DNA of 63,529 nt, counting the filler, from Candidatus Zapsychrus exili (GTDB lineage: Bacteria > Omnitrophota > Gorgyraeia > Zapsychrales > Zapsychraceae), in assembly GCA_030765585.1 (NCBI GenBank). It is 5 parts of 5 records of this genome, joined end to end, with 100 filler letters (N's around TTAATTAATTAA, not from the genome) between each part and the next. Parts side by side here need not be neighbours in the genome. Positions count along the whole stretch, not along the records: positions 23,632 to 31,523 come from JAVCCJ010000003.1; 4 more parts are not named here. One strand, written 5' to 3'. Made by a program: the position numbers and the translations under genes. Of the stretch, positions 29,898 to 46,070 are shown piece after piece (the stretch's first letter is position 1; each line of letters opens with the position of its first letter). The notes beneath the pieces are model-generated. The model saw only the letters and a program-made list of their open reading frames with translations. It was not told where the DNA came from and ran no database searches.

Positions 29898-30899
29898 ATG
29901 AAAAAGAACGAATTAAAAGAAAATTTAGGTGAGATTGCTATCTTTAAACTAAAAGGAGGCAATGTCAAAGTTGAGGTTAATATTGAGAATGAGACTGTGT
30001 GGATAACGCAGTCACAGATGTCTGATTTATTTTCAACGGAGAGAAGCGTTGTTACAAAGCATATTCGTAACATATTGAGATCTAGAGAACTTATAGAAAA
30101 TTCAGTATGTGCAATTTTTGCACGTGCTGCTTCTGATAAAAAGATTTATAAGACTAAATTTTATAACTTGGATATGATAATTTCTGTTGGATATAGAGTG
30201 AATTCAAAGCTTGGTACCAAGTTTCGTATTTGGGCCACCAATGTATTGAGGCAACATATGGTAAAAGGATATACCATAAACAATAATAGGCTTAAGAAAG
30301 AATCAAAATTATATGAAGATTTAAAGAAAGCTGTTGACCTTTTAGGAAATGTTGTATCTCTGGAAAACGTTTCAGATGATGCAAAGGGTCTTATAGAAGT
30401 TATCTCTCAGTATTCAAAAGCCTTAAAAATTCTTGATGATTATGATTATAAAAGGTTAAAAGATGTCAAGACAACAAAAAAAGAAATATATAAGCTAACC
30501 TATGATGAGGCTAGGGGTATAATTGATGTATTAAGAAAGAAATTTAACGATTCAAATTTTGTTGGTCAAGAAAAAGATAAGAGTTTTGTAAGCTCAATAA
30601 GTGCAATTTATCAAACTTTTTCGGGAAAAGATTTATATCCAAGCGTAGAGGAAAAAGCAGCTAATCTCCTGTATTTTGTCACAAAGAATCATAGCTTTAT
30701 TGATGGAAACAAAAGGATAGCAGCAGCGTTATTTATATGTTTTTTGAAAAGAAACAATTTATTGTACGATACAAAAGGTAATCTTAGCATTAGTAATAGT
30801 GCGCTCGTTGCTTTAACGCTTATGATAGCTGCAAGCAGACCAAAAGAAAAAGATGAGATTGTGAAGGTTTTAGTTGGCTTATTGAGCAAGCGTTATTAG
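29898..30899 (+). CDS. RhuM-like DNA-binding domain fused to Fic/Doc domain
   Basis: YNLDMIISVGYRVNS..FRIWA; HSFIDGNKRIA. Confidence 0.92.
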   Translation: MKKNELKENLGEIAIFKLKGGNVKVEVNIENETVWITQSQMSDLFSTERSVVTKHIRNILRSRELIENSVCAIFARAASDKKIYKTKFYNLDMIISVGYRVNSKLGTKFRIWATNVLRQHMVKGYTINNNRLKKESKLYEDLKKAVDLLGNVVSLENVSDDAKGLIEVISQYSKALKILDDYDYKRLKDVKTTKKEIYKLTYDEARGIIDVLRKKFNDSNFVGQEKDKSFVSSISAIYQTFSGKDLYPSVEEKAANLLYFVTKNHSFIDGNKRIAAALFICFLKRNNLLYDTKGNLSISNSALVALTLMIAASRPKEKDEIVKVLVGLLSKRY

Positions 30900-30922: not shown

Positions 30923-30950
30923 TTGACTTTTATTATTTTTTATGTATAAT
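30923..30950 (+). promoter_or_regulatory. Sigma70-type promoter upstream of tRNA-Asn
   Basis: TTGACT-N16-TATAAT, followed by boxA-like TGATCTTTTAAAA at 30961. Confidence 0.7.
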
Positions 30951-31088
30951 TTGTATCAACTGATCTTTTAAAATGTAATCCTCTCTCACCACAAGGCGTG
31001 GTGAGCTCGCCAAGTTTTGTGGCGAGGTAGTATTAGAACATTTTTTATGTATTATGTTTTATTGTTGCATAGTATTTTAAAGATACAA

Positions 31089-31376
31089 TCCCCTGTAGCT
31101 CAGCTGGTAGAGCAATTGGCTGTTAGTTAAGTTAGCAGCCTCTAGCAGAAACGCTAGAGTGAATAAGTAGGCTAATTCAGGGAAACCCTATTCGATTAAT
31201 CGAAGGGCAATCCTGAGCTAGCATCCGTTATGATTTATAGCGGAGGGCAAGTGCAGAGACTTTACACCTACTTCCCAAACGTAAAGACGTGGGAAAAGAG
31301 AAAGTCCGACTCTTCAGGTAACTGGAGTCAGATCGTAACCAATGGGTCCGTGGTTCGAGTCCACGCGGGGGAGCCA
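31089..31376 (+). tRNA. tRNA-Asn(GUU), exons 31089-31123 and 31336-31376, CCA encoded
   Basis: Joined exons fold into a cloverleaf: TCCCCTG/CGGGGGA acceptor, GCTC/GAGC D stem, ATTGG/CCAAT with loop CTGTTAA, CGTGG-TTCGAGT-CCACG. Confidence 0.95.
31124..31335 (+). ncRNA. Group I self-splicing intron (IC3-like), 212 nt, no ORF
   Basis: P AATTCAGGGAAAC, Q AATCCTGAGC, R GTGCAGAGACT, S AAGAGAAAGTCC; P1 GGCTGT/GCAGCC with U.G at the 5' splice site; terminal G 31335. Confidence 0.93.
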
Positions 31377-31523
31377 ACTCGTTCTCTCATCAAAACGAGA
31401 GATAATACCACCAGAAGGGCCCTTCTTGGGTTTTTCTGGTGGTATTTTTATTTCAGGTAAATCCCAAAATGTGATTCTGACCTTTGATGAGTCCTCGTTA
31501 TATATAATCTTTTTGATAAGTAA

Positions 31524-33521: not shown

Positions 33522-34901
33522 ATGTTAAGAACGCACACATGTTCAGGATTAAGAAAAGAAGATAAAGATAAAGAAGCTATTCTATGCGGATGGGTTGGAG
33601 CAAGAAGAAATCATGGTAAACTCATTTTCATTGATATAAGAGATAGATATGGAATAACGCAAGTTGTTTTTGTTCCTTCAGTTAGCAAAGAGGCTCATGA
33701 GTTAGCTCAGAAATTAGGACCTGAATTTGTTATAAAGGTAACAGGTAAAGTAGCTACGAGACCAGATAATATGATTAATTCTGATATACCAACAGGCGAA
33801 GTTGAGCTTTGCGCTGAAGACCTAGAAATACTTAATGAAAGCGAAGTTCCTGTATTTGAAATTGATGATACGGTAGATGTTGGCGAAGAGTTGAGATTGA
33901 CTTATAGATATCTAGATTTAAGAAGAGAAAAGGTTAGAAGCGCACTTGAATTAAGACATAAACTATGTGCAACTATTCATGATTATTTAAATAAAAAAGA
34001 TTTCTTAGAAATTGAAACACCTGTCTTGACAAAGTCAACTCCAGAAGGAGCAAGGGACTTTCTGGTTCCTTCTAGACTTAATCCAGGACAATTTTATGCG
34101 CTACCTCAATCTCCTCAGCTTTTTAAACAAATTTTGATGGTATCAGGAATGGATAAGTATTATCAAATTGTTAAATGTTTTAGAGATGAAGATTTGCGAG
34201 CTGATCGTCAGCCTGAATTTACACAGCTTGATATGGAGATGTCTTTTATCGAAGAGGAAGATATATTTTCTTTAACAGAGGGATTGTTTAAAGAAATATT
34301 TTATCAAATAAAAGGTATAGATATACCGACTCCTTTTCCTCGTATGACACACAAAGAAGCAAAGGACAAGTATAATAGCGACAAGCCAGATTTGCGCAAA
34401 GAAGGCGAAGAGTTTTCGTTTACTTGGATAGTGGATTTTCCAATGTTTAAATACAATGAAGGAGAAAAGCGTTGGGATAGCGAGCATCATCCATTTACAT
34501 CGGTTAAAGAAGAAGATATGGAGAATTTTAATAATGGAAAATATGACAAAGTTCGCGCACGTTCATATGATTTAGTTCTTAATGGAAGTGAAATTGGAAG
34601 CGGATCTGTTCGTATACATAAAAAAGATATGCAAAAAAAGATATTTGATATAATAGGTATTGATGAAAAAGAAGTGGAAGAAAGATTTGGCTTCTTGCTT
34701 AAAGCTTTTCAATATGGAGCTCCACCTCACGCCGGAGTAGCATATGGCATAGATAGACTAGTTGCTATATTAGCAGGATTAGATTCTATAAGAGATACAA
34801 TAGCTTTTCCGAAAACTCAGAAGGGTAGCTGTTTATTGGCTGATGCGCCTTCTGGCATAGATCAAAATCAAATAAAGGAATTAGGCCTTAAAAAGGCATA
34901 A
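33522..34901 (+). CDS. aspS: Aspartate--tRNA ligase, short bacterial type without GAD insertion
   Basis: MLRTHTC, STPEGARDF, LPQSPQLFKQ, FRDEDLRADRQPEFTQLD, YGAPPHAG; 459 aa. Confidence 0.96.
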   Translation: MLRTHTCSGLRKEDKDKEAILCGWVGARRNHGKLIFIDIRDRYGITQVVFVPSVSKEAHELAQKLGPEFVIKVTGKVATRPDNMINSDIPTGEVELCAEDLEILNESEVPVFEIDDTVDVGEELRLTYRYLDLRREKVRSALELRHKLCATIHDYLNKKDFLEIETPVLTKSTPEGARDFLVPSRLNPGQFYALPQSPQLFKQILMVSGMDKYYQIVKCFRDEDLRADRQPEFTQLDMEMSFIEEEDIFSLTEGLFKEIFYQIKGIDIPTPFPRMTHKEAKDKYNSDKPDLRKEGEEFSFTWIVDFPMFKYNEGEKRWDSEHHPFTSVKEEDMENFNNGKYDKVRARSYDLVLNGSEIGSGSVRIHKKDMQKKIFDIIGIDEKEVEERFGFLLKAFQYGAPPHAGVAYGIDRLVAILAGLDSIRDTIAFPKTQKGSCLLADAPSGIDQNQIKELGLKKA

Positions 34902-45566: not shown

Positions 45567-45666
45567 NNNNNNNNNNNNNNNNNNNNNNNNNNNNNNNNNN
45601 NNNNNNNNNNTTAATTAATTAANNNNNNNNNNNNNNNNNNNNNNNNNNNNNNNNNNNNNNNNNNNN
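45567..45666. other. Artificial contig linker
   Basis: N-run, TTAATTAATTAA, N-run. Confidence 0.99.

Positions 45667-46070
<404 letters not shown>

Follow-up and report, generated by a model that had tools for sequence, protein, structure and literature searches.

In the analysed window, i.e., the whole 63,529-nt stretch of Candidatus Zapsychrus exili (Omnitrophota) DNA, a tRNA-Asn(GUU) gene at 31089-31376 is interrupted within its anticodon, between positions 35 and 36, by a 212-nt group I intron (Table 1). After joining of the two exons, ARAGORN recognized a 76-nt tRNA-Asn(gtt) with an encoded CCA, and the exons are 93-98% identical to the intron-less tRNA-Asn genes of relatives. The RF00028 covariance model matched positions 31114-31328 over its full length (model positions 1-253; 80.8 bits, E-value 6e-19, cut-off 50). 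This is the sole group I intron detected in the genome. Folding of the 288-nt precursor gave z = -5.2.

Table 1. Features of the split tRNA-Asn locus (positions in the window; helices are predicted).
Feature	Position	Strand	Remarks
Sigma-70-like promoter candidate, TTGACT-16-TATAAT	30923..30950	+	11/12 consensus matches; putative function
tRNA-Asn 5' exon	31089..31123	+	tRNA positions 1-35; first base U1, last base U35
Group I intron	31124..31335	+	212 nt; nuclease gene absent; last base omega-G 31335; RF00028 80.8 bits
Internal guide sequence	31131..31140	+	P10 strand GUUA (31131-34), P1 strand GCAGCC (31135-40)
P2 hairpin	31141..31158	+	GAAA in loop; 6/6 pairs change on both sides (alignment A1)
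P3, enclosing P4, P5 and P6/P6a	31166..31272	+	31166-71 with 31267-72
P4	31177-82 with 31211-16	+	inside P3; nearly invariant in A1
P5	31186-31207	+	one 22-nt hairpin inside P3; 2/3 pairs change on both sides
P6/P6a	31217-31252	+	inside P3
P7, with P8	31256..31307	+	31256-61 with 31303-07; bulged A31257; P7 invariant in 20/20
P8	31273-94	+	CCC...GGG receptor-like motif
P9.0 and P9 hairpin	31308..31334	+	G31308-C31334 and A31309-U31333 (P9.0); GUAA tetraloop (P9)
tRNA-Asn 3' exon	31336..31376	+	tRNA positions 36-76; A72, G73, encoded CCA
Terminator-like hairpin	31404..31446	+	19 pairs, then T run; putative function

Promoter-like sites numbered three, versus 1.5 in shuffles, and weak Rfam matches near the terminator-like hairpin were put down to chance. 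A GC-rich double hairpin (30981-31030), present once in the genome, lies in the tRNA leader, downstream of the promoter-like site and ahead of exon 1. Just upstream of the promoter candidate, after recR, there is a gene for a 333-aa protein (29898-30899) with a C-terminal Fic/Doc-like match (TIGR01550, E-value 5e-7, below the cut-off). Elsewhere in the window, on the minus strand at 45666-46022, a 16S rRNA gene is represented by its 5' part, truncated at an assembly gap.

The same mature tRNA results from three junction registers. Among the nine registers tested, U at position -1 and G at omega coincide at 31123/31336 (35/36) only, and because the first intron base is other than U in 121 of the 138 related introns, the ambiguity of the junction register is removed. 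In those 138 relatives, the terminal G and the ending of exon 1 were set by the search patterns and carry no independent evidence. The junction in intron-less orthologues reads CTGT/TAAC (the slash marks the splice point). ARAGORN run without the intron option called zero tRNAs in the window, and its intron mode (-i) returned a wrong call, tRNA-Thr(cgt) i(34,212). As a standard tRNA finder overlooks the gene or assigns it wrongly, genomes carrying it seem to be devoid of tRNA-Asn. In a preliminary description of this DNA, an ORF-less, 212-nt group I intron ending in G had been proposed at 35/36 of tRNA-Asn(GUU), in a gene that standard tRNA callers would miss; the covariance-model check, the call obtained for the spliced sequence, the last intron base, the lack of an HNH-like frame and the behaviour of ARAGORN all bear this out.

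According to a passage of a review (PMC3984707), group I introns are defined by the P, Q, R, and S elements, which make P4 and P7, plus helices P3-P9. In the window intron eleven helices form, and the P, Q, R, and S elements, P3-P9, P9.0, and P10 are all present; the group I features found thus comprise the covariance match, the core helices, the U.G pair of P1, omega-G, P9.0, and P10. The P1 strand of the guide sequence pairs with GGCUGU (31118-23), which places U35 (U31123) opposite G31135, and the P10 strand pairs with UAAC of exon 2 (31336-39); both pairings had been put forward in the preliminary description, and the sequence agrees with them. The G31258-C31306 pair in P7 is part of the predicted guanosine pocket. 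The pocket residues (A31257, G31258-C31306) are named after the Tetrahymena core.

For the analysis of covariation, alignment A1 was built from 20 introns of the window intron's 24-member clade (L005, L008, L033, and L035 were omitted to limit long inserts). Over the 45 named pairs, 94.5% of the cells pair, versus 27-40% in slid controls. Changes on both sides were found for 20 of the 45 pairs (including three of six in P3), and none of 500 shuffles, which ignore relatedness, reached the pairing and change values of A1. P7 shows no variation and P4 hardly any, and therefore both are uninformative by covariation. Three of the four P10 pairs are invariant in A1, and of the 136 introns with a located guide sequence just 34 have a P10 of at least three pairs. 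P9.0 was scored in 138 distinct introns as the two bases after P7 versus the two before omega-G; it is strictly paired in 108 of them, compared with a mean of 27.5 and a maximum of 44 in 2,000 shuffles (relatedness ignored), the five main combinations across the introns being AC/GU, AA/UU, GA/UC, AG/CU, and GC/GC. Compensatory changes of this kind speak for selective maintenance of the predicted intron fold.

Loops L1, L5, L6, and L8 of some related introns (L006, L036, L038, L039, L040, L194, L201, and L202) hold palindromic inserts of the GAGCGAAGCGAG and GTCATTGCGAG...CGAAGCAATCTC type, which we take to be REP-like. These inserts in the peripheral loops enlarge the introns to 300-700 nt.

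The distribution of the intron was surveyed in 401 genomes of the host phylum (Omnitrophota), using as a test a G directly before exon 2. An intron junction was detected in 93 genomes (reversed-pattern control: 0) and an intron-less junction in 149, with both forms in two genomes and neither in 161. When loci were fetched from the 93 junction-bearing genomes, 29 of 30 could be spliced to tRNA-Asn, and the remaining one contains assembly gaps. Furthermore, scanning of five of the 64 parts of a species collection yielded 120 loci (about 1,700 stretches with the junction pattern are estimated), of which 93 spliced to tRNA-Asn; for loci with long flanks the figure was 75 of 80. The misses were mostly loci without upstream DNA, with one intron-less tRNA-Thr and one unrelated sequence. 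Hosts of the Asn 35/36 introns include Patescibacteria groups, Bacillota, Omnitrophota, Acidobacteriota, Nitrospirota, cyanobacteria, Elusimicrobiota, and Planctomycetota. In the clade of the window intron, all four named records are from Omnitrophota, and its kin cluster with named Omnitrophota in other clades too. In the preliminary description, insertion at Asn 35/36 had been called unusual, which is an overstatement: an intron occupies the site in 93 of the 240 informative genomes of the phylum, and in many other phyla as well.

Several further loci should be mentioned. Two assemblies, G252 (L194, L195) and G212 (L196, L197), hold an intron-bearing plus an intron-less tRNA-Asn; the intron-less copies are near contig ends and may be true second copies or strain mixtures. 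On contigs taken as viral (host DNA being possible), the intron was present in 14 of 57 loci. Nine Asn 35/36 introns on such contigs, each about 200 nt long (L208, L222, L224, L234, L237, L240, L245, L247, and L251), have 3' ends resembling those of cyanobacterial fMet, not cellular Asn, introns. Annotated phages gave short P/Q-core matches only (8 records) and no tRNA intron. The 5.7-kb contig with the Asn 35/36 intron L167 bears the label of an archaeon (Methanosarcinales) and may be misbinned. Two cyanobacterial genomes have four intron-split tRNA genes each, read as Leu, fMet, Arg-CCU, and Asn (L085/L189, L183, L191, L193 and L096/L188, L182, L190, L192, respectively). Finally, at L124 the tRNA-Asn 3' exon follows a mere intron 3' end, and a search of 1.2 kb gave no 5' exon; this locus is possibly an integration scar.

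No second tRNA-Asn was found in the genome by ARAGORN, blastn, or pattern search; this absence is soft, because the assembly, with 35 tRNAs only, also misses the Tyr and Ile(GAU) tRNAs. The cell likely has no tRNA-Asn gene apart from the split one, and splicing would therefore be essential. The spliced tRNA has the cloverleaf, the anticodon GUU, U1-A72, and G73, the last of which is a tRNA-Asn determinant. The U1-A72 pair of tRNA-Asn is described in a passage of PMC1635274 as a GatCAB determinant promoting amidation. As gatB scored above the cut-off in the genome, and no match to asnS above the cut-off was found there, the aspartate-tRNA ligase likely charges this tRNA-Asn. A bacterial-type enzyme of this kind is encoded in the window (33522-34901); its 459 aa, versus about 590 in the model, suggest that it is likely a short form without the insertion domain.

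We consider it very probable that the intact group I intron between U35 and U36 of this tRNA-Asn(GUU) gene self-splices, a reading based on sequence comparison. Every structural element needed for the two-step guanosine pathway of group I introns, as outlined in a passage of PMC3984707, is present. The guide sequence would pair with exon 1, with the U.G pair marking U35, and free guanosine bound in P7 would attack after U35. The omega-G, positioned by P9.0, would then occupy the guanosine pocket, P10 would align exon 2, and an attack by U35 would release a normal 76-nt tRNA-Asn.

An alternative that we hold to be improbable, though the least so of those considered, is that the intron is real and in the cell splices poorly or depends on host proteins or chaperones. 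Its P8 indeed differs from the CCUAAG/UAUGG-type receptor of many clade members; however, the window copy retains every core helix as well as the P7 pocket, and in size and layout the intron is near the 205-nt Azoarcus pre-tRNA intron, an efficient self-splicer in vitro according to a passage of PMC13168695. We give less credence to a dead or spare locus accompanied by a second, intron-less tRNA-Asn missing from the assembly. Such a copy could be imagined, given that several other tRNAs are absent from the assembly and that two of the 93 intron-bearing genomes also have an intron-less copy, whereas no such copy was seen in the other 91; moreover, the exons, the promoter-like site, and the terminator-like hairpin are intact, and the compensatory changes point to selection on the fold.

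The least credible reading, which we rejected, takes the host for tRNA-Thr(CGU) with an intron at 33/34. It follows the intron-mode call of ARAGORN, and this register does have U at -1, but the last intron base would then be U rather than G, with P1 and P9.0 out of register, and both the closeness of the exons to the intron-less tRNA-Asn genes of relatives and the U1-A72 pair speak for tRNA-Asn.

In relatives, the L1 loop, which in the window intron is 5 nt long, holds a gene for an HNH-like protein. Matches of at least 75 aa to this frame (about 100 aa) were found in 30 of the 138 introns, the count being based on trimmed queries, which gave 30 long and two short matches. Five examples compared with Pfam HNH scored 18.2-19.7 bits (E-values 0.0009-0.003), below the curated cut-off of 21.4. 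Copies of the frame from different phyla are 54-75% identical, and its last codons overlap the guide sequence in the relatives; in the short copies L037, L043, and L203 these last codons are kept as deletion remnants. The window intron has no HNH-like reading frame. Its nearest intron, L003 (76% identity over 192 columns), carries the frame, as do all five other clade members from the same family (L003 plus four), some of them in a broken form. Elsewhere in its own genome no convincing nuclease homologue was found (best E-value 0.013), and a nuclease supplied in trans was rejected on this ground. A match of the L1-guide junction of the window intron to the last nuclease codons (KLAAS) was disregarded when remnants were scored, the guide sequence being under constraint in any case.

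The 11 introns of the window family fall into two lineages, their monophyly being rejected (p-AU 0.00013) for a group picked after viewing an earlier tree. At least 14 changes in nuclease presence or absence are needed among 53 rows of an unrooted tree, in which loss and gain are not separable. This pattern fits invasion, decay, and loss. From these comparisons, the window intron likely descends from a mobile form with an HNH homing nuclease gene in L1, since lost, and likely marks the final, nuclease-free stage of a homing cycle. A broader picture can be drawn, in which the host phylum (likely Omnitrophota) would be a second hotspot with a live Asn 35/36 homing cycle, the intron being carried by about 40% of species and two distinct intron lineages sharing this site within one family; the L1 HNH nuclease would be repeatedly gained, broken, and deleted, phages would carry the intron between phyla, and the window copy, in an essential gene, would have reached the end stage by losing its nuclease. 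That all these parts are true together and previously undescribed is a serious possibility, and we would narrowly expect at least one of them to fail.

Taken as a family, the introns, which are patchily distributed, have nuclease genes in intact, broken, or deleted form, and occur on viral contigs as well, would offer a testable case of homing into a tRNA gene that is single-copy on a free-standing bacterial chromosome, a setting in which a 2014 review (PMC3984707) found little evidence for horizontal movement. The window intron itself is a compact natural ribozyme that is simple to assay.

In IC3 introns, L2 docks with P8, and GAAA in L2 as well as CCC...GGG in P8 are both present in the sequence of the window intron. 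Passages in two papers ascribe to IC3 a GNRA L2 loop with CCC...GGG or an 11-nt receptor in P8 (PMC2275092) and the absence of the P5a-d extension (PMC11835236), which is absent here too. Likeness of the P/Q/R/S elements to cyanobacterial tRNA-Leu introns had been noted before and is seen again in P, Q, R, S, and P8, which are close to those of L182 and L183. As P5a-d is absent and the core is like that of cyanobacterial Leu introns, IC3 membership is plausible. In the tree, whose backbone is unresolved, seven reference introns, labelled as Leu, fMet, and Arg by reading their sequences, grouped together (86/90), apart from the window intron. The IC3 pre-tRNA introns (Azoarcus tRNA-Ile(CAU), cyanobacterial tRNA-Leu(UAA), tRNA-fMet, and tRNA-Arg(CCU)) share with it the compact core, P2 with GAAA, simple P5, and tetraloop-capped P9, but differ in host tRNA and insertion site.

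Among bacterial tRNA anticodon-loop introns, Williams (2020; bioRxiv 10.1101/2020.01.27.920355) distinguished 21 host/site classes, four classical and 17 new. The window intron shares with them the U-1/G-omega rule and the size range, and would be Asn.4Ug in the numbering of Williams. Bonocora and Shub (2001) described a homing endonuclease in the tRNA-fMet intron of cyanobacteria, a nuclease-bearing precedent targeting an anticodon region; the window copy, in contrast, is without a nuclease gene, and its relatives have the HNH-like frame of about 100 aa in L1. A search of the accessible literature returned no paper on Asn 35/36 introns and none on tRNA introns in Omnitrophota. A 2025 preprint (Nakagawa, Amikura, Omae, and Suzuki; bioRxiv 10.1101/2025.07.03.662931), cited in a passage of PMC12641178, concerns a novel tRNA insertion site of Patescibacteria group I introns, and its title bears out the introns mentioned for that group in the preliminary description. 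The Patescibacteria loci of our own survey share the tRNA-Asn host and the site, whereas the window host belongs to Omnitrophota and its intron to a separate P10-bearing clade of the tree with the unresolved backbone. Nakagawa and co-workers reportedly found introns in tRNA-Asn and tRNA-Asp at 35/36 that splice in vitro, and they are said to call the site rare outside Patescibacteria and to assign the introns to subgroup IA. Group I insertion at Asn 35/36 appears to have been described already, and the window intron is a further member of this set.
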